48,295 nt of DNA, from the NCBI GenBank assembly GCA_964361885.1, contig CAYICL010000003.1, forward strand, positions 1 to 48,295, read 5' to 3'. Position 1 is the stretch's first letter. Each line of letters begins with the position of its first letter. Positions 1 through 42,786 of the stretch are shown piece by piece. Source of the DNA: an uncultured Pseudomonadales bacterium (GTDB lineage: Bacteria > Patescibacteriota > Microgenomatia > UBA1400 > CG1-02-47-37). The notes under the pieces were generated by a model. The model ran no database searches. It was not told the DNA's origin and was given only the letters and a program-made list of their open reading frames with translations. A program made the translations under genes and the position numbers.

Positions 1-1002
1 GAAAACGTCCTTTACATCCTCGATCTTTATGACAGCGTTGCCCGGATCGAACAGCGCTTTTTAAGCCCGACCGTGGACACCGAAAAACTGACCACCAACT
101 TTATCTCGCCTTTAGCCGCTGACGGCCAAATTACCATCAACGGTTCTGTTGAAATTCACGGTGACGCCAGTATTTCCGGAACTTTAACTGCCAATGAAAT
201 CAAATCTTCTACCACTGACAGCTTAAAAGAAAAAATCGCTGATATTATTGCCAGTCTGGATCAGCCTAAGGCCACACCGCCAAAGTCAGCCTCAATGTCA
301 GCCACTCCCGAGGTGTTTGCAGATTTCACCTCGGGAGTGAGTTCACCTTCTGCCTACTTGGATATTGACAGTCTTAATGCTGACTCCGGCTTTTTCTCCG
401 AATACTTGGCTGTCTTAGGTTCAGCCGCCATTACCAGCTTAAATGTTACCAATAGTTTAACCATTAATAACCAGTTGTTACTGACTGCCAACTCGCTTTC
501 AGGTCTGGATAATCAACTTTTCCTCCAACCTTCAGGCACCGGCTCGATCAACTTTCTGGCAGGCTTAATGACTTTGTCTGACGCCGGTCTGGTTACCATC
601 ACCGGTAACTTAACTGTCACCGGCACTTTAACCGCTACTTATATCGCTCCTCCATTAGAGCAAGATCTGCAAATTAACATTGCCAGCCAATCGGCTGTGG
701 CAATCTATAATCAAATATCCGGCTCTCAAATAGCTTCAATTGATGCTTCCGGTTCAGCCTCTTTTAACCGATTAAATCTAAAAGCCTCAGGCTCAACCTC
801 GATTCTGGCCGGCGAAAATCACGTGATGATTAACTCCGATGCTCTCACTCAAACTTCCCAAATTATCGTTACCTTTACTTCCGACTACAAACCGGCCTCA
901 AAATACTGGGTGGTTAAAGAACCTGCCAACCAACACTTTACTCTCTTTGTCAACTACCCGGTCAACTCCGACACTTTTCTCGACTGGTTGATTATTAACT
1001 AG
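1..1002 (+). CDS. Secreted/surface repeat protein, 5'-partial (frame 1 is open from the window edge; the listed GTG at 73 is probably internal)
   Basis: Frame 1 has no stop from nt 1. The protein is Thr/Ser/Gly/Asn-rich with repeats such as SGTLTANEI and TGNLTVTGTLTAT, which look beta-helix or fibre-like. It carries an in-frame 37-nt palindromic cassette at 303-339. Confidence 0.5.
   Translation, partial: ENVLYILDLYDSVARIEQRFLSPTVDTEKLTTNFISPLAADGQITINGSVEIHGDASISGTLTANEIKSSTTDSLKEKIADIIASLDQPKATPPKSASMSATPEVFADFTSGVSSPSAYLDIDSLNADSGFFSEYLAVLGSAAITSLNVTNSLTINNQLLLTANSLSGLDNQLFLQPSGTGSINFLAGLMTLSDAGLVTITGNLTVTGTLTATYIAPPLEQDLQINIASQSAVAIYNQISGSQIASIDASGSASFNRLNLKASGSTSILAGENHVMINSDALTQTSQIIVTFTSDYKPASKYWVVKEPANQHFTLFVNYPVNSDTFLDWLIIN
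303..339. repeat. Family-2 palindromic doublet CACTCCCGAGGTG-N11-CACCTCGGGAGTG (37 nt) in the surface-protein gene
   Basis: Read directly. Encodes TPEVFADFTSGV. Confidence 0.9.
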
Positions 1003-6339: not shown

Positions 6340-6345
6340 TATAAT
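6340..6345 (+). promoter_or_regulatory. -10 box (TATAAT) 7 nt upstream of ATG 6353 (tsaD), suggesting a leaderless start
   Basis: Read directly in the 21-nt HIT/tsaD divergent spacer. Confidence 0.35.
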
Positions 6346-6352
6346 ACCATAT

Positions 6353-7473
6353 ATGAAATCGCCATTAATTTAGCCATCGACACTTCCTGCGACGAAACCT
6401 GCGCCAGTGTTTCTTTTGGCCGCCGGATTTTATCCAATGTCATCTCTTCCCAAATCAACATTCACCAAAAATATGGCGGCGTTGTCCCGCACCTGGCCAA
6501 ACGGGCCCATCAGGAAAAAATCGAGCCTGTCGTTAAAGAGGCAATAAAAAGGTCTGTCCTTAAAGGACTCAAGTTGCGTCAGCAACCTGAAAAGAATTCA
6601 AAAAGGACAGACCTTTCTGGAATAAGCGCCATCGCCGTCACCGTCGGTCCGGGCTTGGCTCCGGCCCTTGAAGTTGGTATTAACTTTGCCAAAAATCTTG
6701 CCCGCCGGCTCAAACTCCCGTTAATTGCTGTCAATCATATGGAAGGCCACCTCTTATCCTGCCTTGCCTTGCCTCACACTCCCGGAGTGAAATCTTCAAA
6801 CACTCCGGGAGTGAAATTCCCCGCTCTCGGCCTGCTCGTCTCCGGTGGTCACACCCAGTTGGTTTTAGTCAAATCCATTGGTCTATACCAACTTTTGGGT
6901 GAAACTTTGGATGATGCAGCCGGTGAAGCTTTGGATAAGCTTAGTAAAATGTTAAAACTCGGCTATCCCGGCGGCCCGATTATCGAACAACTAGCTAAAC
7001 AATCCGCCGGCTGGCGGACCAGCACCATCCCCTTACCCGTCCCTTTGCAACATTCCCAAGACTTAAACTTCTCTTTTTCCGGTTTAAAAACCGCGGCTCT
7101 TTATACCATTCAAAAAGTTTACAAAGGACGGACCTTTGTAAAAAAACAATTCACTTACGACTTATGCGCTGCTTTCCAAACTGCCATTGCTAAAAGCTTA
7201 ACTGTCAAACTCCAAAAAGCGATTGAGCAATACCAACCAAAAAGCATTTTGTTAGGCGGCGGGGTGTTTTCCAATTTATATTTCCGTCGCCAAATCCGCT
7301 CGGCTGTTAAACCATTTCAACTACCTCTTTATCTTCCCTATTCCAAAAAACTTTTTACTGACAATGCTGCCATGATTGCCGTTCCCGCTTACTTTAAATT
7401 TCTTAAAAAAGACTTTGTCAAAAACATTAAGACCCTGGACCGCCAACCAAACCTTAACTTTGATACAATATAG
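6353..7473 (+). CDS. tsaD: tRNA N6-adenosine threonylcarbamoyltransferase TsaD (Kae1/Gcp family), with apparent 1-nt frame problem at codon 2-3
   Basis: The conserved N-terminus LAIDTSCDETCASV...GGVVPHLAKRAH...AVTVGPGL lies in frame 1 upstream of the listed TTG at 6574. HMEGH metal site and SGGHTQL are present. The only nearby ATG (6353) is one base out of frame. Confidence 0.8.
6548..6616. repeat. 69-nt palindromic cassette inside tsaD (14-bp perfect inverted repeat AAAGGTCTGTCCTT / AAGGACAGACCTTT), REP-core variant
   Basis: Read directly. Inner hairpin GTTGC-GTCA-GCAAC at 6573-6586. Encodes KRSVLKGLKLRQQPEKNSKRTDL. Confidence 0.85.
6777..6813. repeat. Family-2 doublet variant CACTCCCGGAGTG-N11-CACTCCGGGAGTG in tsaD
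   Basis: Read directly. Encodes TPGVKSSNTPGV. The spacer is the reverse complement, 10 of 11 nt, of the 303-339 spacer. Confidence 0.85.
7117..7143. repeat. REP copy (GTTTACAAAGGACGGACCTTTGTAAA) inside tsaD, in frame (VYKGRTFVK)
   Basis: Direct reading. 10-bp stem TTTACAAAGG/CCTTTGTAAA around ACGGA. Confidence 0.9.
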
Positions 7474-7477
7474 GCAA

Positions 7478-7552
7478 GTCCCTATAGCTCAACGGATAGA
7501 GCCCAGGTTTCCTAAACCTGTAATGAAGGTTCAATTCCTTCTGGGGACACCA
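7478..7552 (+). tRNA. tRNA-Arg (anticodon CCT), CCA encoded
   Basis: Manual cloverleaf: acceptor GTCCCTA/TGGGGAC, D arm GCTC-AACGGATA-GAGC, anticodon arm CAGGT-TTCCTAA-ACCTG, T arm GAAGG-TTCAATT-CCTTC, discriminator A plus CCA. Confidence 0.85.
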
Positions 7553-8091: not shown

Positions 8092-8167
8092 CGGGGTGTA
8101 GCGCAGTTGGTAGCGCGCTACGTTCGGGACGTAGAGGCCGGCGGTTCGAATCCGCCCACCCCGACCA
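8092..8167 (+). tRNA. tRNA-Pro (anticodon CGG), CCA encoded
   Basis: Manual cloverleaf: acceptor CGGGGTG/CACCCCG, D arm GCGC-AGTTGGTA-GCGC, anticodon arm CTACG-TTCGGGA-CGTAG, T arm GGCGG-TTCGAAT-CCGCC, then A plus CCA. Confidence 0.85.
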
Positions 8168-14189: not shown

Positions 14190-15968
14190 CTACATCCGCT
14201 CCGGCGTGGCAATCCCCAGTAAACCCAAACCTTTTTTAATTATCTCGGCCGTTGCCTGAGTCAGCCACAGCCTGAACTCTTTTACCTCTTTTTCCGCCTT
14301 TAAAATCCGGTGCCGGTTGTAAAACCCATTATACTTTTGAGCCAAATCATATAAGAAATTGGCTACCAGATTTGGCGCCAACTCCGCCGCCGCCTGGCTG
14401 ACCACCTCTTCATACCGATACAACGTCCGCAGTAATAGGTCTTCCTCTTTTGAATAAGGTCCGACCTTGAGCGCCTTTGGCGCGTCCCGACGAATGTCGG
14501 GACTCAAGGTCGGACCTTTACTCAGCACGCTCTTGGCTCTGGCGTATGTATACTGCAGATACGGCCCTGAGTTACCCTCTAAACTAATCGATTCGTCAAA
14601 ATCAAAAGCCATGTCTTTGGTCCTGCCCACTTTTAAAATACTGTATTTAACTGCTCCCACTCCGATTTTTTCCGCTACTTCGTCAATGGAGGCTGTTTCC
14701 ACTTCGCTCTCACCTGACCGTTTCATAATTTCTTTAGTTTTTCCCACTGCTTGATCCAGCAAATCATCAATATATACCACCATACCTGTTCTTGAACTCA
14801 TCCTGCCCTTACCCTTAAGACTCATCCAGCCATAACTCACATGCTGACACTCTTTGATCTTCACTATCCCTAGCTGTTCGCAGACCGCAAACATCTGTTT
14901 TAAAGCTAATGACTGCTCCGGTCCGATCACCCAAAAAAGCTTATCCGGTTTAAAGGTCTCCTTTTTTAATTTGGTCAAAGCTAAATCCTGAGTAATATAC
15001 AAAGCCGTACCGTCTGCTTTAATCACCACCGTGTCCGGAATGCCGTACTTGGTTAAATCCGTGACGATTGCCCCTTCTTTTCCTTTTCTAAACACGCCTT
15101 TCTTCAAACCTAGCTCCACCAAGTCCTTCCCTTGCTGATAATGCTCATGCTCATGCCAAACCCTGTCCCATTTATTTCCCAGTCTCTTCAGCGTCAACTC
15201 CTGCCCCTGGTAGGAATATTCCAGTACCTTTGCCCATAAAGCCCGGTTCTTCTTGTCTCCGGCTTCCCAATCTATCACCATTTGCCTGACCGCCTTTTCT
15301 GTATCAGCTGTTTTACAATCCTCACTGGCCTTAACATATAACTCGTCTACAAATCTATCCGGCCTCATCTTGGCATTTTCCGGAGTCTGCCATTCATCCT
15401 GATGGTCATACCAATAATTAAGATCAATCATTTGCTTCTTTTCTTTGTGGCCAAACCTTAAATATCCCCACATTAATTTGGCAATGGCAATTCCCCGGTT
15501 ATTATCAACACAATCTCTGACCACCTGGCAACCTAAGGCTTCGAAAATATTCGCCAAGGCCATACCGATAATATTGTTGGTTAAATGTCCTAAATGCATG
15601 GCTTTATTAGGATTAGGTGACGTGTGTTCCACTAAATATTTTTTCCCCTGATAAGGTTTCTTCTCATCACCAATTAGCACTTGATTAATTTGATTGATAA
15701 GAACGTCACTTTTGATTGATATATTAATAAAACCTGCTCCGGCAACACTGATTTTTGAAGCTATTTTTTTCATGCTATCTTCGGCTTTTAACTTAGCTGC
15801 AATTGCTTCAGCTGTTTCTCGGGGTGACTGGCTTTTTAACGCCACATTGCAGCTATAATCCCCAAACGCCATGTTCTCCGGATGCTCCACAATAAACTTG
15901 GCTTTTTCTAATTTGAGTTCTTTTAAAATCTTCTCTATATTCTTATAAATCTGATGTGATAATTCCAT
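14190..15968 (-). CDS. argS: Arginine--tRNA ligase
   Basis: HTSPNPNKAMHLGHL (HIGH region), MSSRTG (KMSKS-like) and a C-terminal anticodon-binding domain ending ...ERM. Carries a 63-nt in-frame palindromic cassette at 14456-14518. Confidence 0.9.
   Translation of the reverse strand: MELSHQIYKNIEKILKELKLEKAKFIVEHPENMAFGDYSCNVALKSQSPRETAEAIAAKLKAEDSMKKIASKISVAGAGFINISIKSDVLINQINQVLIGDEKKPYQGKKYLVEHTSPNPNKAMHLGHLTNNIIGMALANIFEALGCQVVRDCVDNNRGIAIAKLMWGYLRFGHKEKKQMIDLNYWYDHQDEWQTPENAKMRPDRFVDELYVKASEDCKTADTEKAVRQMVIDWEAGDKKNRALWAKVLEYSYQGQELTLKRLGNKWDRVWHEHEHYQQGKDLVELGLKKGVFRKGKEGAIVTDLTKYGIPDTVVIKADGTALYITQDLALTKLKKETFKPDKLFWVIGPEQSLALKQMFAVCEQLGIVKIKECQHVSYGWMSLKGKGRMSSRTGMVVYIDDLLDQAVGKTKEIMKRSGESEVETASIDEVAEKIGVGAVKYSILKVGRTKDMAFDFDESISLEGNSGPYLQYTYARAKSVLSKGPTLSPDIRRDAPKALKVGPYSKEEDLLLRTLYRYEEVVSQAAAELAPNLVANFLYDLAQKYNGFYNRHRILKAEKEVKEFRLWLTQATAEIIKKGLGLLGIATPERM
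14456..14518. repeat. 63-nt nested palindromic cassette inside argS (15-bp perfect inverted repeat AAGGTCCGACCTTGA / TCAAGGTCGGACCTT enclosing two hairpins)
   Basis: Read directly. Inner hairpins GCGCC-TTT-GGCGC (14471-14483) and GTCCCGAC-GAAT-GTCGGGAC (14484-14503). Confidence 0.9.
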
Positions 15969-16753: not shown

Positions 16754-18157
16754 ATGAAAATCGTTATTGGCTACCCGCCGATTAAATCTTCAAAAGGCGT
16801 TCCGCTTTTATCCCAAAACCGCCAGTTCCAGTGGTTTTCTTCCCCTACTTACGTCTACCCGGTTATTCCTGCCTCAGCCGCCACTTTATTAAAAACCAAT
16901 GGTTATCAAGTCAGCTGGCTGGACGGTATTGCCGAAAACTGGAGCTATAACCAATGGTTTAACCAATTACAAGCCGAGTCGCCAGACTTGCTCTTTATCG
17001 AAACCAAAACTCCGGTGATCAAACAACACTGGCAGATCATCAAACATCTAAAATCTAAAATCCCTGATCTAAAAATCTGTTTGGCCGGTGACCACGTCAC
17101 TGCCTTACCCAAAGAATCGTCTAAAAACTGCCCGGTTGATTATATTGTTGTTGGCGGCAACTATGATTTATCTTTACTTTCTATAGCAAACAGTATCAAC
17201 AAAACTAAACAAAAAGTTTACCAAGGACGGACCTTTGTAAATTTACCATTCATCGATCGGCAGTTAACCAAATGGCGTCTCTATGCTTACAAAAACGGCA
17301 ACTTTAAATTTACCCCGGCTGCTTACACCATGGCCGGCCGCGACTGCTGGTGGCGTCAAAACGGCGGCTGTACTTTTTGCTCCTGGACCACCCTTTTCCC
17401 CAAATTTATGGTCCGCACTCCAAAAAATCTTTTAGACGAAATCGACCAGCTCATCAAATTAGGCATTAAAGAAGTCTTTGACGATACCGGAACTTTCATG
17501 ACCGGTAACTGGTTAAAACAGTTCTGCCAAGGCATGATCAAGCGTGGCTATAATAAAAAAATCGTTTTTGGCTGCAACATGCGCTTTGGAGTTTTAACTC
17601 AAAAAGACTATTACTTAATGGCCAAAGCCAATTTTAGATTCCTTCTTTTTGGTTTAGAATCAGCCAGTCAAACCACCCTCGACCGCCTAAACAAAGGCAT
17701 TAAAATCAATCAAGTTGAACCAGAATTAAAAATTATTAAATCTGCCGGCGGCCGACTTGAACCTCATGTTACTTGTATGGTCGGCTATCCCTGGGAAAGT
17801 TTAGCCGACGCTCAAAATACCGTTAACTTTACCAAAAATCTCTTTAAAAAAGGCTTAATCAGCTCACTCCAAGCCACCATTGTCATCCCCTATCCCGGCA
17901 CCAAACTCTTTGCCCAAGCCAAGAAAAACCATTGGCTCAAAACTTTGGACTGGAATAAATATGACATGCGCCAACCAATCCTTAAATCCCCTATCCCCGA
18001 TAAAAAACTGATGCAGCTCACCCGGAATATTTACCTTAGCTGTTTCACTCCTCAATTTATTTTCAAAAAATTGCTCTCGATCCGCTCTTTGGCTGACATT
18101 AAATTTTTATTTAGATCGGTCCGAAAATTCGTCGGCCAGCTGCTGGATTTTTCATGA
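16754..18157 (+). CDS. B12-binding-domain radical SAM protein
   Basis: N-terminal Rossmann-like B12-binding region; Cys cluster GRDCWWRQNGGCTFCSW; radical-SAM core (FGLESASQTTLDRLNKG). REP copy in frame at 17216-17241, in the inter-domain linker. Confidence 0.7.
   Translation: MKIVIGYPPIKSSKGVPLLSQNRQFQWFSSPTYVYPVIPASAATLLKTNGYQVSWLDGIAENWSYNQWFNQLQAESPDLLFIETKTPVIKQHWQIIKHLKSKIPDLKICLAGDHVTALPKESSKNCPVDYIVVGGNYDLSLLSIANSINKTKQKVYQGRTFVNLPFIDRQLTKWRLYAYKNGNFKFTPAAYTMAGRDCWWRQNGGCTFCSWTTLFPKFMVRTPKNLLDEIDQLIKLGIKEVFDDTGTFMTGNWLKQFCQGMIKRGYNKKIVFGCNMRFGVLTQKDYYLMAKANFRFLLFGLESASQTTLDRLNKGIKINQVEPELKIIKSAGGRLEPHVTCMVGYPWESLADAQNTVNFTKNLFKKGLISSLQATIVIPYPGTKLFAQAKKNHWLKTLDWNKYDMRQPILKSPIPDKKLMQLTRNIYLSCFTPQFIFKKLLSIRSLADIKFLFRSVRKFVGQLLDFS
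17216..17241. repeat. REP copy (GTTTACCAAGGACGGACCTTTGTAAA) inside the radical SAM gene, in frame (VYQGRTFVN)
   Basis: Direct reading. One mismatch to consensus. Confidence 0.9.
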
Positions 18158-23605: not shown

Positions 23606-23998
23606 ATGATTCAAATTAAAGTCGGCGGTAAACTGATTGCTTTAATTATCAAAGCTAAAACTCAACCCAAGATAAATCAGTTTATAACTGATCCTCACAA
23701 TCCTCTCCAGCTGGGCTTTCTCCGATTTTCTAAAAATCGCCAAGTAAAGCCCCACCAACACCGCGCTCTTGATAAAACCACTCACCAAAATCAGGAATTT
23801 ATTTATGTTGTCTCCGGCCAAATTCTGGCTGAATTTTTTTACAAAGGACGGACCTTTGTAAAACATCTGCTTAATCCCGGAGATTGCTTATTGCAACTAC
23901 AAGGCGGCCATGGGTTTACCATGCTTAAACCCACCAAGCTCATTACCATTAAGCAAGGTCCTTACTCCAGCCGCCAGCGCGAAAAAATCGAAATATAG
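23606..23998 (+). CDS. Cupin-fold protein (WbuC/sugar-modifying cupin-like)
   Basis: I place the start at ATG 23606 (MIQIKVGG) rather than the listed 23426, which would run through the divergent gene's start. HQH...QEFIYVVSG...GDCLL...GGHGF is a cupin pattern. REP copy in frame at 23838-23863. Confidence 0.5.
   Translation: MIQIKVGGKLIALIIKAKTQPKINQFITDPHNPLQLGFLRFSKNRQVKPHQHRALDKTTHQNQEFIYVVSGQILAEFFYKGRTFVKHLLNPGDCLLQLQGGHGFTMLKPTKLITIKQGPYSSRQREKIEI
23838..23863. repeat. REP copy inside the cupin gene, in frame (FYKGRTFVK)
   Basis: TTTACAAAGGACGGACCTTTGTAAAA read directly. Confidence 0.9.
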
Positions 23999-24966
23999 TC
24001 TTCGGCTATCTTATCCCAGCTAAACTGTTTGAGCCACTGCTCTGGTCGATACCGCTTTTTTGATAAAGCTAATTTTAATTTTTCCACGTACTCTTCTCCC
24101 CAAACATCTTTGACATAAATCCCATAATCACCCAATATTTCTCTTCTTAACTCATCATCCGTCGCTACTACCGGCAAACCTGAAGCCAGCGCCTCTAAAT
24201 AGACAATGCCAAACGCTTCGGTCGAATCGCTGACTAAAGTAAACACATCCGCTGCTCGATAGACCGCCGGCATCGCTTCATGTTTAAATTTTTTCCCTCC
24301 TCCGGCCCACAACAAATTTACCGCTCCGAAGCCCTGCCTTGCCGGCAGGCAGGCTTGGCGAAGGGCGGCTACCGCCCTTCTAGTCGCTTCCACCCGTTTA
24401 TATTTATCTTCCGAAGCAACGCATAAAATTATTGGCCCCTTCAATTTTAGGTCCAATTTCCCACCCTCAGGCTTAAACCGTTGTAAATTTACTCCGTTAG
24501 GAATCACTTCAATCCTGACTCCCCGGCCGTAAAACTTTTTCGCCCAGCGCCGATTTCTTTCGCTTAAAGCCACAAACACATCCGGCCGCATCAGTAAATT
24601 CCACCCGTCGCACCAACCTAAACCCGCCTGTCCGCTAATCACCAGTTTGGCACCGGTTTGCCAGCAAAACAAACGGCATAATAAACTCTGCCAGCCGCCG
24701 TTAAATGGCATGATTATATCCGGTCGCCACGGCTTTAATTTTTCCAGCGCCTGCCGCGTTTCCCACCGCATTGTCCGGTGATACTTGTCAATCATCAAAG
24801 TCTTTAACCAAGGACGGACCTTTGTAAAAGATTGCCAGTCGACTGAATTGACACTAATTACTTTTACCTGGTGCTGCTTTTGCCAGCGCCGACTCAGTTC
24901 TTTCACTACCGTCTCTACCCCCCGATCAATTCGGCCACTGGTAAACGATAAAACCGCAATTTTCAT
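23962..24966 (-). CDS. GT4 (GT-B fold) glycosyltransferase
   Basis: MKIAVLSFTSGRIDRGVETVV...SDSTEAFGIVYLEALASGLPVVATDD (E-x7-E type motif). Confidence 0.8.
   Translation of the reverse strand: MKIAVLSFTSGRIDRGVETVVKELSRRWQKQHQVKVISVNSVDWQSFTKVRPWLKTLMIDKYHRTMRWETRQALEKLKPWRPDIIMPFNGGWQSLLCRLFCWQTGAKLVISGQAGLGWCDGWNLLMRPDVFVALSERNRRWAKKFYGRGVRIEVIPNGVNLQRFKPEGGKLDLKLKGPIILCVASEDKYKRVEATRRAVAALRQACLPARQGFGAVNLLWAGGGKKFKHEAMPAVYRAADVFTLVSDSTEAFGIVYLEALASGLPVVATDDELRREILGDYGIYVKDVWGEEYVEKLKLALSKKRYRPEQWLKQFSWDKIAEDYISIFSRWRLE
24803..24829. repeat. Degenerate REP copy inside the GT4 gene (minus strand reads FTKVRPWLK)
   Basis: TTTAACCAAGGACGGACCTTTGTAAAA. The left arm is altered relative to consensus. 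Confidence 0.8.
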
Positions 24967-34683: not shown

Positions 34684-35546
34684 TGAAGTTCTCCGTTATC
34701 ATCCCTTGTAAAACTAAGGCCGACCTCTGCCCCGAACTGATTCCGGCTTTAAAATCTCAAACTTTCAAAGACTTTGAAACTATCATTGTTATTGACCGTC
34801 TTTGCGCAGGCTTGCCGGCTGCAAAACGCGATTGGGGGGCAAACCGCAGTCATGGCCAAATTTTGGCTTTTATTGACTCTGATGCCTACCCTGACCAACA
34901 CTGGCTGGAAAACGCCAATGCTCACTTTAAATCTCCTGTTACCGCGGCTGTTTGCGGTCCTGGCCTAACTCCTCCCACTGACTCTCAAACCCAACAGCTT
35001 TCCGGTTTAGTTTGGTCGACCTGGCTCGGTGCCGGCGGCGCCGGTACTTTTAGAAACCTAAAAGCTAAACCCCGTCTGGTTGATGACTATCCCAGTTTTA
35101 ACCTTCTGGTTTTAAAAAAAGACTTTAACCAAGTTAACGGTTTTAACACCCGTTACTGGCCCGGCGAAGACACCAAGCTCTGCCATGACTTAGTCTATAT
35201 CTTAAAAAAACAAATTCTTTATCATCCCCAAATCATGGTTTATCACCACCGCCGGCCGGTTTTTATCTCTCATCTTAAACAAATCTCCGCTTACGGTCTT
35301 CACCGCGGGTTTTTTGTTAAAATCCTACCCAAAACTTCTTTAAAACCCGGCTATTTTATTCCCCTGCTTTTTCTCTTTGGTTTAATCATCTTGCCTTCTT
35401 TAACTCTTCCTCCTTACCTGCTTCTCCTTATCATTACCGGCCTGATTCACCGCTCTTTACTTTTAATCCCGGCTATCTTTCTGACTCACCTGACTTACGC
35501 CGTGATGTTTTTAAAAGGCTTACTCACTCCCTACCTCAAAAACTAA
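34683..35546 (+). CDS. Family 2 glycosyltransferase with C-terminal TM segments
   Basis: MKFSVIIPCKTKADLCPELIPALKSQTF...FIDSDAYP...GEDTKLC. Its stop codon abuts the left REP copy. Confidence 0.7.
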   Translation: MKFSVIIPCKTKADLCPELIPALKSQTFKDFETIIVIDRLCAGLPAAKRDWGANRSHGQILAFIDSDAYPDQHWLENANAHFKSPVTAAVCGPGLTPPTDSQTQQLSGLVWSTWLGAGGAGTFRNLKAKPRLVDDYPSFNLLVLKKDFNQVNGFNTRYWPGEDTKLCHDLVYILKKQILYHPQIMVYHHRRPVFISHLKQISAYGLHRGFFVKILPKTSLKPGYFIPLLFLFGLIILPSLTLPPYLLLLIITGLIHRSLLLIPAIFLTHLTYAVMFLKGLLTPYLKN

Positions 35547-36291
35547 GTTTACAAAGGACGGACCCTTGTAAACTATGTATAATACAAATATGCCTGCCAA
35601 AAATATTATCAAAACCTATATTCAAAACGGTTATTATCACCTTTATAATCGCGGAGTCAACAAACGAAACATCTTTAAAAATCAGCAAGATTACGGTGTT
35701 TTTCTTGGCTACTTGAAACAATATCTCTCCCCAAATGATAAAAATCCTTGTTTAAGAAACATCACTGTTAAAAACAAAGTTTATAAAATTCTGACTCCCC
35801 CATGTAAAAACTATCATCATGATATCAAACTCCTGGCTTACTGTTTAATGCCTAATCATTTTCATTTATTAATTAAACAATTTTCCGAAAGAGGCATTGC
35901 CTCACTGATGAAATCTCTCGGCACCCGCTACACCATGTACTTTAACAAACGTTACCAACGCACCGGTCCTTTATTCCAAAGCCGTTATAAGGCCGTTTTA
36001 ATTGATAACGAAAACCAGCTGCTTCATCTCTCCCGCTATATTCATCTTAATCCCCTACCCAAAAACCCAACTCAACCCTCTAGTTATCCTAATTATCTTG
36101 GTCTAAACCATGCCACTTGGATTCAGCCCCAAGAAATCCTTACTTTCTTTAAAACCGCCCGCAAAACCAATCTGAATGATATTAGTTCATATCAAAGTTT
36201 TATTGAAGACTATTCTGAACCGCCTAAAACATTTTTAGAAAACCTTACCCTTGATTAGATTGTTTACAAAGGACGGACCCTTGTAAACTAT
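35547..36291 (+). mobile_element. REP/RAYT unit: IS200-like Y1 (HUH) transposase gene bracketed by two identical 27-nt (30-nt with flank) palindromic REP copies
   Basis: GTTTACAAAGGACGGACCCTTGTAAACTAT occurs at 35547-35576 and 36262-36291 in direct orientation. The unit fills the gap between two convergent gene ends exactly. Confidence 0.8.
35575..36258 (+). CDS. REP-associated tyrosine transposase (RAYT; IS200/IS605 TnpA-like Y1 HUH enzyme)
   Basis: YHLYNRGVNKRNIF, HUH motif in LMPNHFHLLIK, FQSRYKAVLI and the catalytic-Tyr region LSRYIHLNP. The start may be ATG 35590 (MPAKN), which lies 6 nt after a TATAAT. Confidence 0.8.
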   Translation: MYNTNMPAKNIIKTYIQNGYYHLYNRGVNKRNIFKNQQDYGVFLGYLKQYLSPNDKNPCLRNITVKNKVYKILTPPCKNYHHDIKLLAYCLMPNHFHLLIKQFSERGIASLMKSLGTRYTMYFNKRYQRTGPLFQSRYKAVLIDNENQLLHLSRYIHLNPLPKNPTQPSSYPNYLGLNHATWIQPQEILTFFKTARKTNLNDISSYQSFIEDYSEPPKTFLENLTLD

Positions 36292-39814: not shown

Positions 39815-40390
39815 TTAATAAACCGCTACCTTTTCCTTAATCGCTTCATACACATTACTTTTCACCGCTTTTTTTGTCAGCAACTCCTCCACTGACCCAT
39901 ACGGCCGGTTTGAAATAATCTTTTCTGCCGTGGCCGGCCCCACTCCCCAAAGCGTATCCAGCTCGGCGCTTGACGCGGTATTGATGTTTACAAAGGACGG
40001 ACCTTTGTAAACATTTTGAGAAGGTCCGTCCTTATTGGATTCTTCTTGACTCGGAATATATACCTTCTGGCCGTCAACAATTTTGGCAGCCAAATTTAAG
40101 TTTTTATTCAACCATTCCCTGTCTGCTTTTTCTCCTAAGCCGCCGGCGACGACTAAGGCATCATTCATTCTGGCTCCAAGGCTTAACTTATACAATCCGG
40201 GCTTCATCACTGCTCCGGCTACATCCACATACACATACACCTCTTTTTCCTGCTCTACGATCTCTACCCCTCTATCAGTCGCTTTATTGCTGATCAATAT
40301 TGCTGAAAACACTCCGACAATCAATAACAGTATTCCCGCCAATCCCACGGTCAACCAATATGGTTTGGCTTTCAATTCCTTTATCCTCAT
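39815..40390 (-). CDS. comEA: ComEA DNA receptor (SLBB domain plus helix-hairpin-helix)
   Basis: VAGAVMKPGLYKLSLGARMNDALVVAGG (SLBB) and INTASSAELDTLWGVGPATAEKIISNRPYGSVEEL (HhH). The REP doublet sits in the inter-domain linker. Confidence 0.8.
   Translation of the reverse strand: MRIKELKAKPYWLTVGLAGILLLIVGVFSAILISNKATDRGVEIVEQEKEVYVYVDVAGAVMKPGLYKLSLGARMNDALVVAGGLGEKADREWLNKNLNLAAKIVDGQKVYIPSQEESNKDGPSQNVYKGPSFVNINTASSAELDTLWGVGPATAEKIISNRPYGSVEELLTKKAVKSNVYEAIKEKVAVY
39986..40033. repeat. REP doublet (full REP 39986-40012 plus inverted core AAGGTCCGTCCTT at 40021-40033) inside comEA
   Basis: Read directly. Encodes NKDGPSQNVYKGPSFVN on the minus strand. Confidence 0.9.
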
Positions 40391-42786
40391 ACCACCAGAT
40401 TCACCAGTTTTCCCGGCACAAACACCTCTTTGACTACTTTTTTCCCTGCCAAATAAACCTTCACCTTTTCGCTTAACTTAGCCATTGCCAGGACTTTTTC
40501 CTTATCACCGGCTTGTTCCCGATCCAACACCAGCCTGTCTCTAAGCTTAGCATTCACTTGAATTACCACTGTTACCGTCTCGCCCTTGGCAAACTCTTTA
40601 TCATATTCCGGCCAAGCTTGCTGATGCACCGAAAACTTACCTCCAAGCTTCTGCCACAACTCCTCGCTTATATACGGTGCCATCGGCGCCAATAGCAAAA
40701 TCAAAGTCTTAACTGCCTCTGAAAACACCTCCGAGGTGTGAACTTCTTTCACCTCGGAGGTGAATAATCTCTCCAACTCATTAACATACTCCATTAAAGC
40801 CGCAATCCCCACATTAAACCTAAACTCTTTCATTGCCTGAGTGACTCGCTTAACTGTCTGGTGTTGCAACCGACGCAAGCCTTCAAGGTCCGTCCTTGTA
40901 GGCTTATTGTTTACAAAGGACGGACCTTTGTAAACCAACTTCCACACCCGGTTTAGAAACCGCCTCATTCCTTTCATGCCTGTGTCTTGAAAATCACCGC
41001 CCTGATCATACGGCCCGATAAACATTAGATACATCCGCAAAGCATCCACTCCGTACTTATCTATATACTCATCCGGATTGACAATATTGCCTTTACTCTT
41101 ACTCATCTTGGCTCCGTCTTTAATAATCAAGCCGTGCCCATACAAAAACGGAAACGGCTCATCTCCCAAACTCTTAGGAATATAGCCAAAATCCTGCAAA
41201 GCCATCCAGATAAATCGGGAATACATCAGGTGCAGCACAGCATGTTCTGCTCCGCCGATATAAGCGTCAACCGGCAGCCACTTCTTGGTAACTTCCGGAT
41301 CAAAAGGCAAATTAGACACTCCCGAGGTGGCAGATTTTTTCACCTCGGGAGTGTGATTGACCGACGGATAGCGCAGGAAATACCACGAACTGTCCAAAAA
41401 TGTGTCGCTCACATCTGTTTCCCGTTTCGCTTTGCCTTTGCATGAAGGGCATTTGGTATATAACCAATCATCTCCGGCCTTCTGAAGCGGCGACTTGCCG
41501 TCTCCAGTCGGTTTAAAATCTTTGACGTACGGCAGTTTCACCGGCAGATTCTTTTCTTTTTCTGCTTGCCATTTACATTTCTCGCAATAAATCATCGGAA
41601 TCGGCGGCCCCCAGTACCGCTGCCGGCTGATACACCAATCCCTTAACCGGTAATTTATCTTTTTCCTCACTCCGCCTAATTTTGCCAACTGTTTAAAAAC
41701 TTCATCTTGATTTTTCAAAACATCTACTACCAATAACTTATGTTTCTTGGCAAAAGCCATATCTCTCTCGTCATGAGCCGGCACCCCCATCACCGCTCCG
41801 GTACCATAATCTTTCAGCACAAAATCGGCTATCCAAATCGGCATTAACTTGCCTGTTAATGGATGAGTCACTTTGTAACCAGTATCCACTCCCGTTTTAC
41901 TTTTCTCTCCTTCTTTTCTCTGTTGCTCAGTTTTATCTAAAGCTTTTTTTACATAATTCATCACTGCTTTATTTGTGGTCAAACTGCTCACCAAAGGATG
42001 TTCCGGGGCTAAACATAAAAAAGTGGCTCCAAAAATCGTGTCCAGTCTGGTAGTAAAGGTGGTAACTTTTTTATCCATGCCTTTAACTTGCCAGTCAACT
42101 TCGACTCCCTTGCTCCGGCCGATCCAGTTTCTCTGAACCGTCTTGATCTTCTCCGGCCAATCAATCTTGTCAATATTGTCTAAAAGTCTTTGAGCATACT
42201 TAGTTATCTTAAAAAACCACTGGAAAGTTTCTTTTTTTTCCGTCACGGTTTTACACCGCTCGCATAATCCGGCTTCTACCTGTTCATCGGCCAGCACCGT
42301 TTTGCATGACGGACACCAGTTAACCAAAGATTTCTTCCTATAAGCCAATCCTTTCTCAAACATCTTAATAAACAACCACTGGGTCCATTTATAGTATTCC
42401 GGATCATAAGTTTCTAACCGGTTCTCCCAGGAAAACCGGTTGCCGATCCGTGATAATTGTTCGTAAAAATGTTTCTCGCTAATCTTGGCTTGATCTGCCG
42501 GATGCTTAGCGATCTGAATCGCATAGTTTTCCGAGTGAATCCCAAACCCGTCCAACCCGATCGGCTCAAACACCTGATAGCCATTCATCGCCTTGTACCT
42601 GCCGTAAAAGTCTGCCCCGGTAAAAGCATACATATTGCCCACATGTAAACCCTCTGCCGACGGATACGGAAACATCATCAGGTTGTAAAATTTCTTCTTG
42701 GGGTTTTTCAAATCCACTTGATATATCTTGGCTTTCTGCCACTTTTTTTCCCACTTGGTCTCAATAGTTTTGGAATTATAATCCAT
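40387..42786 (-). CDS. leuS: Leucine--tRNA ligase
   Basis: PYPSAEGLHVGNMYAF (HIGH), CxxC zinc motifs, KMSKSKGN and RFLNRVWKLV. Three in-frame palindromic cassettes. Confidence 0.9.
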   Translation of the reverse strand: MDYNSKTIETKWEKKWQKAKIYQVDLKNPKKKFYNLMMFPYPSAEGLHVGNMYAFTGADFYGRYKAMNGYQVFEPIGLDGFGIHSENYAIQIAKHPADQAKISEKHFYEQLSRIGNRFSWENRLETYDPEYYKWTQWLFIKMFEKGLAYRKKSLVNWCPSCKTVLADEQVEAGLCERCKTVTEKKETFQWFFKITKYAQRLLDNIDKIDWPEKIKTVQRNWIGRSKGVEVDWQVKGMDKKVTTFTTRLDTIFGATFLCLAPEHPLVSSLTTNKAVMNYVKKALDKTEQQRKEGEKSKTGVDTGYKVTHPLTGKLMPIWIADFVLKDYGTGAVMGVPAHDERDMAFAKKHKLLVVDVLKNQDEVFKQLAKLGGVRKKINYRLRDWCISRQRYWGPPIPMIYCEKCKWQAEKEKNLPVKLPYVKDFKPTGDGKSPLQKAGDDWLYTKCPSCKGKAKRETDVSDTFLDSSWYFLRYPSVNHTPEVKKSATSGVSNLPFDPEVTKKWLPVDAYIGGAEHAVLHLMYSRFIWMALQDFGYIPKSLGDEPFPFLYGHGLIIKDGAKMSKSKGNIVNPDEYIDKYGVDALRMYLMFIGPYDQGGDFQDTGMKGMRRFLNRVWKLVYKGPSFVNNKPTRTDLEGLRRLQHQTVKRVTQAMKEFRFNVGIAALMEYVNELERLFTSEVKEVHTSEVFSEAVKTLILLLAPMAPYISEELWQKLGGKFSVHQQAWPEYDKEFAKGETVTVVIQVNAKLRDRLVLDREQAGDKEKVLAMAKLSEKVKVYLAGKKVVKEVFVPGKLVNLVV
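40726..40762. repeat. Family-2 doublet CACCTCCGAGGTG-N11-CACCTCGGAGGTG in leuS
   Basis: Read directly. Encodes TSEVKEVHTSEV on the minus strand. Confidence 0.85.
40885..40935. repeat. REP doublet (inverted core AAGGTCCGTCCTT at 40885-40897 plus full REP 40909-40935) inside leuS
   Basis: Read directly. Encodes VYKGPSFVNNKPTRTDL on the minus strand. Confidence 0.9.
41317..41353. repeat. Family-2 doublet CACTCCCGAGGTG-N11-CACCTCGGGAGTG in leuS
   Basis: Read directly. The arms are identical to the 303-339 copy. Encodes TPEVKKSATSGV on the minus strand. Confidence 0.9.

Follow-up and report, generated by a model that had tools for sequence, protein, structure and literature searches.

An in-frame palindromic cassette in argS of a Patescibacteria genome as a probable REPIN-like doublet of a RAYT-associated hairpin family

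Introduction

How does a GC-rich palindrome come to lie within the reading frame of an aminoacyl-tRNA synthetase gene? The question is raised by a 63-nt cassette in argS, the gene of arginine--tRNA ligase (ArgRS), on contig CAYICL010000003.1 of an uncultured Pseudomonadales bacterium (assembly GCA_964361885.1), which belongs in the GTDB lineage to the Patescibacteriota (Microgenomatia; UBA1400; CG1-02-47-37). The whole stretch of DNA analysed here, positions 1 to 48,295 of the contig (48,295 nt), is referred to as the window. The initial annotation of the window described the cassette as a nested palindrome and suggested that it represents a related family of repetitive extragenic palindromic (REP) elements with a larger structured cargo. 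We propose that the cassette is probably a doublet similar to a REPIN, in which two inverted REP units form one long hairpin, that it belongs to a hairpin family associated with a REP-associated tyrosine transposase (RAYT), and that it is translated as a loop of the ArgRS protein.

The link between REPs or REPINs and RAYTs has been characterised mainly in Enterobacteria and Pseudomonas. The systems described are those of E. coli TnpA-REP and of the Pseudomonas REPINs (Bertels & Rainey; Ton-Hoang et al.; PMC5581495, PMC8266576). In their classical form both kinds of repeat lie outside genes, and the signature of a RAYT consists of a single conserved locus, flanking repeats, and dispersal of the repeat rather than of the gene (PMC5581495).

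The cassette and its reading frame

The + strand of the cassette (14456-14518) reads AAGGTCCGACCTTGA GCGCCTTTGGCGC GTCCCGACGAATGTCGGGAC TCAAGGTCGGACCTT. Its 15-nt ends are exact reverse complements of each other, as had been annotated, and the exact inverted repeat in fact reaches 16 bp. The two enclosed hairpins are also present (Table 1). The predicted fold is a three-way junction on both strands, composed of the outer stem and the two inner hairpins. As single-stranded DNA the cassette folds with -32.5 kcal/mol, compared with -9.9 +/- 2.2 for shuffled sequences (z -10.4), and as mRNA-sense RNA with -54.4 kcal/mol, compared with -22.2 +/- 3.0 (z -10.6); in both cases none of 200 shuffles folds as well. 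The cassette is the most stable 70-nt window in the entire argS gene, and its GC content of 0.62 is higher than that of the whole window (0.43), in agreement with the initial annotation.

The identity of the host gene is clear from PDB matches to E. coli ArgRS (down to E 2e-63) and from thousands of homologues with the three ArgRS Pfam domains. The cassette comprises exactly 21 codons in frame, encoding residues K484-P504 directly C-terminal to ...YTYARAKSVLS, and is located in the DALR anticodon-binding domain between model helices 468-484 and 507-516. In the AlphaFold2 model of ArgRS, which has a mean predicted local distance difference test score (pLDDT) of 88, residues 485-506 form a loop, a short helix and a loop. 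The 10-residue blocks of the cassette have mean pLDDT values of 73-86, and the blocks that follow reach 94-97.

A repeat family within the window

The arms of the cassette, AAGGTCCGACCTT / AAGGTCGGACCTT, can be derived from the window repeat GTTTACAAAGGACGGACCTTTGTAAAC by a single-base change that is mirrored between the arms. The initial annotation was correct in placing them one base away from the REP core AAGGTCCGTCCTT: the core AAGGTCCGACCTT, with up to two mismatches allowed, has 28 matches in the window (both strands counted), while 0.8 are expected. This corresponds to about 13 sites in 48 kb, or about 0.27 per kb. Relative to the resident core pair AAGGTCCGTCCTT/AAGGACGGACCTT, each argS arm has one base changed, in mirror-image positions. 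The exact argS variant has no other site in the window.

Eight single hairpins of the family, named REP-A, are present in the window, with the consensus GTTTACAAAGG-ACGGA-CCTTTGTAAAC (sites 7124, 17223, 23844, 24810, 35554, 36269, 39993 and 40916). Inverted core pairs occur at three or four sites (6548-6616, 14456-14518, 39993-40033 and 40885-40928). Most repeat copies lie in frame inside open reading frames (ORFs), namely those of tsaD, a radical-SAM gene, a glycosyltransferase gene, a comEA-like gene and leuS. Both the argS arms (AAGGT-CCG-ACCTT) and REP-A are small palindromes of the REP-like type, for which about 20-40 nt is typical, and the cassette has the REPIN arrangement, with perfect arms of 15-16 bp making the outer stem. 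The conserved part of the family is the predicted hairpin apex AAGG-WCSGW-CCTT. A search of the 247 fetched loci for the complete REP-A consensus of 25 nt gave no match; the long stems appear to be lineage-specific, with the apex alone shared across lineages.

All eight single REP-A copies carry AAGGACGGACCTT and the ACGGA loop on the + strand, whichever strand the host gene uses. The GC skew is uniformly negative over the window (-0.2 to -0.3), which indicates a single replichore, and the common orientation of the eight copies fits a replication-coupled single-strand mechanism.

The RAYT-like transposase

A candidate enzyme for such a mechanism is encoded in the same window, 21 kb from the cassette. 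The ORF 35575..36258 matches the Pfam family Y1_Tnp (IS200-like) with 50.6 bits, the cut-off being 23. Among the NCBIfam models the REP-associated tyrosine transposase fits best (E 3e-13), and the IS200 model is far behind (E 0.02). The HUH motif NHFHLLI and the tyrosine of RYIHLNP are invariant across the aligned homologues. The top PDB fold match of the AlphaFold2 model of this protein (pLDDT 80) is 4er8 (E 2.7e-5, probability 1.0), which is the E. coli RAYT (TnpA-REP) bound to a REP hairpin; the next matches are the TnpA proteins of ISDra2 and IS608.

REP-A hairpins are located 9 nt upstream and 14 nt downstream of the transposase gene. A locus of Ca. Beckwithbacteria (GCA_026397255.1; L248) is syntenic with window positions 19.9-43.8 kb over about 24 kb, with 71-85% nucleotide identity, so that the window probably derives from a Beckwithbacteria-like Microgenomate. 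It contains an 81%-identical transposase gene at the same syntenic position, and here too REP-A hairpins lie on both sides of the gene, but inverted. With one conserved locus, repeats next to the gene, and dispersal of the repeats instead of the gene, the arrangement matches the signature described for RAYTs (PMC5581495).

The protein family is very large: no fewer than 7979 database proteins match at E <= 1e-10, and all those that carry a name belong to Microgenomates. When the window RAYT was compared by tblastn with 1.63 Mb of loci that had been picked for core pairs alone, homologues were found in 25 loci. In most of them, cores of the matching variant lie within 100 nt of one or both gene ends; the remaining homologues are flanked by other palindromes. 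With one to a few RAYT genes per genome of about 1 Mb, which we infer as the baseline, a handful of chance finds would be expected in 1.63 Mb.

In many RAYT genes of Patescibacteria the coding sequence itself includes the REP core of that gene, without mismatch, at a conserved spot near amino acids 55-65. This was seen in loci L146, L150, L175, L078, L212, L246, L247 and L222, with the peptides EGRTF, QGRTL, QGPTL, YQGPSL and KGRTFV. The window's own RAYT has no exact core at this spot. The embedded core could represent autoregulation or an old insertion.

Table 1. Positions of the cassette, its host gene, the transposase gene and related repeats in the window, with the linker palindromes of orthologous argS genes
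Feature	Coordinates	Strand	Details
argS (arginine--tRNA ligase, 592 aa), host gene	14190..15968	-	ORF, PDB, Pfam, alignment, model
Palindromic cassette (probable REPIN-like doublet)	14456..14518	-	63 nt; ArgRS residues K484-P504 (KGPTLSPDIRRDAPKALKVGP)
Left arm AAGGTCCGACCTTGA	14456..14470		core AAGGT-CCG-ACCTT is a small palindrome in itself
Inner hairpin 1, GCGCC-TTT-GGCGC	14471..14483		single site in window
Inner hairpin 2, GTCCCGAC-GAAT-GTCGGGAC	14484..14503		no copy among 247 fetched loci
Right arm TCAAGGTCGGACCTT	14504..14518		exact reverse complement of left arm AAGGTCCGACCTTGA
Y1/HUH transposase gene, RAYT-like	35575..36258	+	HUH motif NHFHLLI; catalytic Tyr in RYIHLNP
REP-A hairpin AGTTTACAAAGGACGGACCCTTGTAAACT, upstream of RAYT gene	35546..35574	+	
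REP-A hairpin GTTTACAAAGGACGGACCCTTGTAAAC, downstream of RAYT gene	36262..36288	+	
69-nt doublet inside tsaD	6548..6616	+	arms AAAGGTCTGTCCTT / AAGGACAGACCTTT; inner hairpin GTTGC-GTCA-GCAAC
REP-A inside tsaD	7118..7142	+	in frame (VYKGRTFVK)
REP-A inside radical-SAM gene	17217..17241	+	in frame (VYQGRTFVN); also in relative L001
REP-A, intergenic	23837..23863	+	common to Ca. Beckwithbacteria locus L248
REP-A inside glycosyltransferase gene 23962..24966 (-)	24803..24829	+	in frame
REP-A with inverted partner core (doublet) inside comEA-like gene	39984..40033	+	in frame; shared with L248
REP doublet inside leuS	40885..40935	+	in frame (VYKGPSFVNNKPTRTDL); not shared with L248
Linker palindrome, window	14456-14518		63-mer
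Linker palindrome, P0004			AAGGTCGGACCTTGT-TTACTG-ACAAGGTCCGACCTT; same arms as window, opposite order, 10-nt spacer
Linker palindrome, P0003			AAGGTCCG[GCCTTGCC-TGAC-GGCAAGAA]CGGACCTT
Linker palindrome, P0002			ATAAACAAGGAAC-G-GTTCCTTGTTTAT
Linker palindrome, P0007			AACCTGCC..GGCAGGTT

Core pairs in other genomes

The family was followed beyond the window by two scans. In metagenomes the exact pattern of two AAGGTCSGACCTT cores 8-38 nt apart was found on at least 120 contigs, and in species-representative genomes the degenerate core AAGGWCSGWCCTT with the same spacing was also found on at least 120 contigs. The figures that follow apply to the matches listed in these scans. The pairs are inverted in 117 of 127 cases in the metagenome scan. 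The named records are almost all Patescibacteria, a few having other labels; they include Kaiser-, Lloyd-, Nomura-, Yonath-, Zambryski-, Moran-, Levy-, Beckwith-, Woese-, Adler-, Terry- and Tagabacteria as well as Paceibacterota, Minisyncoccia and Saccharibacteria. Three palindromic or near-palindromic core variants dominate, and one-base variants differ by lineage. The full 63-mer is unique in the data examined, but its arms have family relatives across Patescibacteria; a cassette with no relatives in the genome had been named as grounds for rejecting the annotation.

The core is free of stop codons in six frames (KVRP, RSDL, GPT; KVGP, RSDL, GRT), and all frames are used. For pairs at least 500 nt from contig ends, the proportion lying in stop-free ORFs of at least 150 codons is 68% in the metagenome scan and 56% in the genome scan, compared with 77-78% for size-matched windows placed at random in these loci. 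Ten host ORFs, the longest, were checked individually and encode LeuRS (two), PurL, a UvrD/Rep-type helicase, TopA (two), RecG, LigA, SMC and UvrB. Altogether the elements occur in dozens of unrelated genes and in intergenic DNA, in either orientation.

The hairpins also recur at the same permissive loops, namely the ArgRS linker and a site in LeuRS. The leuS doublet of the window (40885-40935, after FLNRVWKL) and a different LeuRS doublet (L075, 876-918, after FLERLWKF) occupy the same protein site, which is a second hot spot resembling the ArgRS linker. These observations allow us to suggest, tentatively and at somewhat less than an even chance, that the apex AAGG-WCSGW-CCTT marks a phylum-wide intragenic REP/REPIN-RAYT system in Patescibacteria, with hairpins in essential genes translated as loops.

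Origin of the doublet

The cassette could have arisen from this family as follows. At the replication fork, where DNA is single-stranded, the RAYT would recognise the folded hairpins and would cut and rejoin them, so that hairpins and doublets spread round the chromosome. Copies that fall into tolerant surface loops and keep the frame would survive and be translated, since the core contains no stop codon in any of the six frames. The argS copy would then be read through as a 21-residue loop of Gly, Pro and charged residues in a hypervariable linker, where it is most likely a neutral passenger. The proposed movement or copying of hairpins on single-stranded DNA, the replication-linked strand bias and the persistence of copies that keep the frame and spare the protein are modelled on the biochemistry of TnpA-REP and of the IS200/IS605 enzymes.

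It is important to note that several observations weigh against this interpretation. The NCBIfam RAYT score of the transposase, 49.8 bits, is under the curated cut-off of 80. A sequence-only PDB search with the single transposase protein gave no match, and a PDB profile search from 18 homologues gave weak matches (E 0.07-0.16). No conserved GTAG or CGTC tag was found beside REP-A, the argS arms or the listed pairs, REP-A ending in GTAAAC. In the repeats that flank the RAYT gene the core variant is A..A, while in the argS arms it is T..A, and therefore the cassette may not be a substrate of the RAYT in the window. The argS element might instead be an immobile relic, a double mutant with mirrored changes, or an import.

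The cassette itself is also an isolated case. Neither the complete 63-nt unit nor its inner hairpins have a second copy in the window or in the 247 fetched loci. The suggestion of a family with a larger structured cargo therefore holds for the arms, which belong to a REP-like, RAYT-linked family, but a sub-family with larger cargo was not found; with inner hairpins of this kind occurring once, the cassette is a one-off doublet variant. The comparison with the closest relative found, locus L001 (SRR22388171), is of little help to a model of simple insertion. L001 encodes an ArgRS (P0001) with 90% amino acid identity to that of the window. Two collinear blocks, together about 4.6 kb long, align at 91-94% nucleotide identity. 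The sole break between them is in the linker, where 109 nt of the window (14427-14535) stand against 88 nt of L001 (3090-3177), so that the window has 7 codons more on balance. In sequence the linkers are unrelated. The alignment indicates that the linker was replaced as a whole and that the cassette is not a clean 63-nt insertion into an empty site; for this reason L001 does not offer a comparison of an occupied with an empty site.

Finally, the sequences outside the cores are complementary far above chance. Among 224 distinct pairs, complementarity of at least 3 bp was found in 31% and of at least 5 bp in 19%, with 1.6% and 0.1% expected by chance. These flanks differ from copy to copy, even inside one Lloydbacteria genome, which a fixed cut-and-paste unit does not account for. 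Examples of copy-specific flanks are ACCGGTAC/GTACCGGT and CAAAATAT/ATATTTTG; the loci of the Lloydbacteria genome (Ca. Lloydbacteria RIFCSPLOWO2_02_FULL_54_12) are L129, L147, L171, L174, L186, L194 and L195.

Such flanks would be expected if the palindromes were made locally and without a transposase, by inverted copying of a hairpin or of a core with its flank through template switching or hairpin-primed repair. The palindrome would then have been enlarged in place, the inner hairpins being further rounds of the same process. The private substitutions mirrored between arms, T/A in argS and AAGGTCTGTCCTT/AAGGACAGACCTT (C>T, G>A) in the tsaD doublet 6548-6616, agree with this explanation, as does the resemblance of the inner stem GTCCCGAC/GTCGGGAC to the core centre GTCCGAC/GTCGGAC plus one base. 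However, a purely local origin leaves unexplained why a 13-nt apex recurs at hundreds of unrelated sites and lineages, and why it flanks RAYT genes. We therefore consider it improbable as a complete explanation, although it is the best of the alternatives. It also overlaps in part with the RAYT-associated origin that we prefer. The mirrored arm substitutions, the copy-specific complementary flanks and the unique inner hairpins do not fit simple cut-and-paste, and together they suggest that doublets are formed or repaired through inverted copying of one arm. Local inverted copying may thus be a doublet-forming route within the RAYT system.

The ArgRS linker

The site of the cassette was examined in an alignment of 24 ArgRS orthologues. 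The flanking helices (...GPYLQYTYARAKSVL.. and ..EE..LLRTLYR[YF]EEV) are conserved, while the linker between them varies in length and sequence in nearly all of the orthologues; the 21 residues of the cassette are not conserved among them. E. coli ArgRS has a linker of comparable length at this position, which means that the cassette fills a pre-existing variable linker and does not add a new one.

In five of seven close orthologues, the window included, the linker contains a strong palindrome, and these palindromes are mutually different (Table 1); none is present in P0001 or P0006. No other 70-nt stretch of the gene folds as stably as the linker in four of the seven. The contig of P0004 contains an identical 36-nt element a second time, in another gene, with the same peptide KGRTLFTDKVRPC.

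The frequency and stability of these hairpins, together with the RNA fold of -54 kcal/mol, might suggest a selected cis-acting structure of argS, for example an mRNA stabiliser, an interdomain ribosome pause or an internal attenuator. This seems to us distinctly unlikely. The relative L001, with 93% nucleotide identity, has no hairpin at the site (-2.5 compared with -54.4 kcal/mol), nor does P0006, and the hairpins of the other orthologues come from different sequence families and lie at slightly different codons. The same elements are scattered over dozens of unrelated genes and over intergenic stretches, and they occur there in both orientations. A terminator and promoter scan called nothing at the cassette, no terminator-like site being present on either strand, and no T-run follows it. 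A search of Rfam 15 near the cassette at a permissive E-value gave sub-threshold miRNA-hairpin noise alone and no curated match. The different palindromes and their absence from some close orthologues lead us to regard the linker as a permissive hot spot with turnover, and as neither a conserved protein segment nor a conserved structure.

Two ArgRS homologues, P0057 and P0101 (861-871 residues), have an extra PF03483 domain.

A recognition motif or an artefact

The conservation of the core over many classes of Patescibacteria, with one-base variants specific to lineages, could also be explained if the 13-nt core were a selected genome-wide recognition motif. It might be a DNA-uptake signal with lineage dialects or the binding site of a dimeric protein. 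In argS the motif would then be present as one copy among many, at a position that ArgRS can accommodate. Inverted pairs in variable protein regions recall the uptake sequences of Neisseria and Pasteurellaceae, and comEC- and comEA-like genes adjoin leuS in the syntenic region of both the window and L248. However, DNA uptake sequences are linear motifs that occur at a very high density, about 1 per kb, independently of hairpin context. The density in the window is modest by comparison, every inspected core copy is the apex of a hairpin, with at least 3 extra stem pairs in 20% compared with 1.6% by chance, and cores of the matching variants directly flank RAYT genes. On this evidence a recognition motif is slightly less probable still than a cis-acting structure.

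That the palindrome is due to chance, or to the palindromic chimeras that can form in amplified or misassembled DNA, can practically be discounted, considering that none of 200 shuffles folds as well, that the reading frame is intact with conserved ArgRS sequence on either side, and that similar elements are present in hundreds of assemblies made independently.

Comparison with known systems

It is useful to compare the RAYT-associated family proposed here with the systems described previously. It shares with REP/REPIN-RAYT systems the short hairpins in many copies, the inverted doublets forming a long hairpin, and the Y1/HUH gene flanked by repeats at a conserved locus; in addition, the transposase model is closest in fold to TnpA-REP bound to a REP hairpin. 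It differs from them in its location, since the cassette lies in frame in argS and the pairs are intragenic nearly as often as random windows, and in the absence of the GTAG tag, the apex being conserved and the stems variable. The transposase is also longer (about 222-227 residues) and under the NCBIfam RAYT cut-off, and the host clade is that of the Patescibacteria.

To our knowledge no dedicated transposase has been assigned to the Rickettsia palindromic elements (RPEs) or to the CGTC REPs. The Patescibacteria repeats, unlike these, flank a RAYT-like gene, and their intragenic fraction is far higher. As in the intragenic REPs and RPEs (Ogata et al.), the elements keep the reading frame of conserved proteins and occupy sites that are variable and exposed on the surface. 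Descriptions of intragenic REPs include dimers encoding 20-30 residues in frame, with a preference for replication and repair genes, in Opitutus, Xanthomonas, Thioalkalivibrio and Rickettsia (RPEs); orthologous genes can hold different REPs at nearly identical positions (Di Nocera et al. 2013, PMC3733652). The families in question, from Proteobacteria, Verrucomicrobia and Rickettsia, have GTAG or CGTC tags, whereas the Patescibacteria family is untagged. Compared by description, the window element lacks the CGTC tag of RPE families and is shorter than the 100-150 bp of RPE-1.

Miniature inverted-repeat transposable elements (MITEs) are likewise small and non-autonomous, have terminal inverted repeats and can add a peptide to a protein. 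The cyanobacterial Nezha is an example of an in-frame MITE. Others are the QMITEs of Coxiella (PMC5896051). The cassette differs from MITEs in being much shorter, in having arms that are themselves hairpins and in the absence of a target-site duplication; its flanks, ...GAGTA / ATTCA..., are partly complementary and not direct repeats. No parent insertion sequence of the DDE type with matching ends was found in the annotated part of the window.

The IS200/IS605 elements (IS608, ISDra2) have the same enzyme fold, and their enzymes recognise DNA hairpins as substrates; the replication-tied strand bias of these elements matches the single orientation of the eight REP-A copies. Unlike them, the gene in the window is apparently not copied, being found at one syntenic locus, and the hairpin is repeated instead.

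Since intragenic REPs were described by Di Nocera et al. in 2013, the kind of event seen in argS is already known, and the single cassette is an ordinary instance of it. What sets the present case apart is the clade, the missing tag, the conservation of the apex at phylum-level breadth, the near-random genic fraction and the link to a RAYT-like gene.

Implications

The wider pattern is more interesting than the argS cassette alone. In the ultra-small Patescibacteria, palindromes inside genes seem to be common and not to have been described before; a literature search on the motif, on in-frame palindromic repeats and on RAYT or REPIN in Patescibacteria or the candidate phyla radiation (CPR) found nothing relevant, which is not proof of absence. 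RAYT-linked hairpins that are largely intragenic in tiny, densely coding genomes raise the question of how a streamlined genome tolerates a replicating repeat. The data suggest that the stop-free core in six frames and the placement in protein loops are the answer. If the apex does mark a phylum-wide intragenic system, palindromes driven by RAYTs would be a main source of lineage-specific insertions in CPR proteins, and a REPIN-RAYT system with an intragenic lifestyle would exist beyond the proteobacterial groups characterised so far. The origin of the many lineage-specific insertions in CPR housekeeping proteins likewise becomes a testable question. There is also a practical side: assemblies break at palindromes of this type, alignments of marker proteins, the aminoacyl-tRNA synthetases among them, are distorted, and annotation can be misled.

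Other features of the window

A second palindrome family, family B, is unrelated to REP and has 13-bp arms CACTCCCGAGGTG / CACCTCGGGAGTG with an 11-nt loop. No copy of it was found in the 247 fetched loci and no enzyme link was seen. Its four copies in the window (303-339, 6777-6813, 40726-40762 and 41316-41354) all lie in frame in ORFs, namely ORF 73..1002, tsaD and leuS (two copies), and give peptides such as HTPGVKSSNTPGV. The tsaD gene (6343-7473, 376 residues) thus contains three different in-frame palindromes, the doublet 6548-6616, the family B copy 6777-6813 and the REP-A 7118-7142, and the Pfam TsaD match covers all three. An orthologue of the radical-SAM gene of the window (L126, 2506-5214; 902 residues) has a faint LAGLIDADG match and is possibly the host of an intein. 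Two tRNA genes (7478-7549 and 8092-8164) are the sole Rfam matches above the gathering score in the window.

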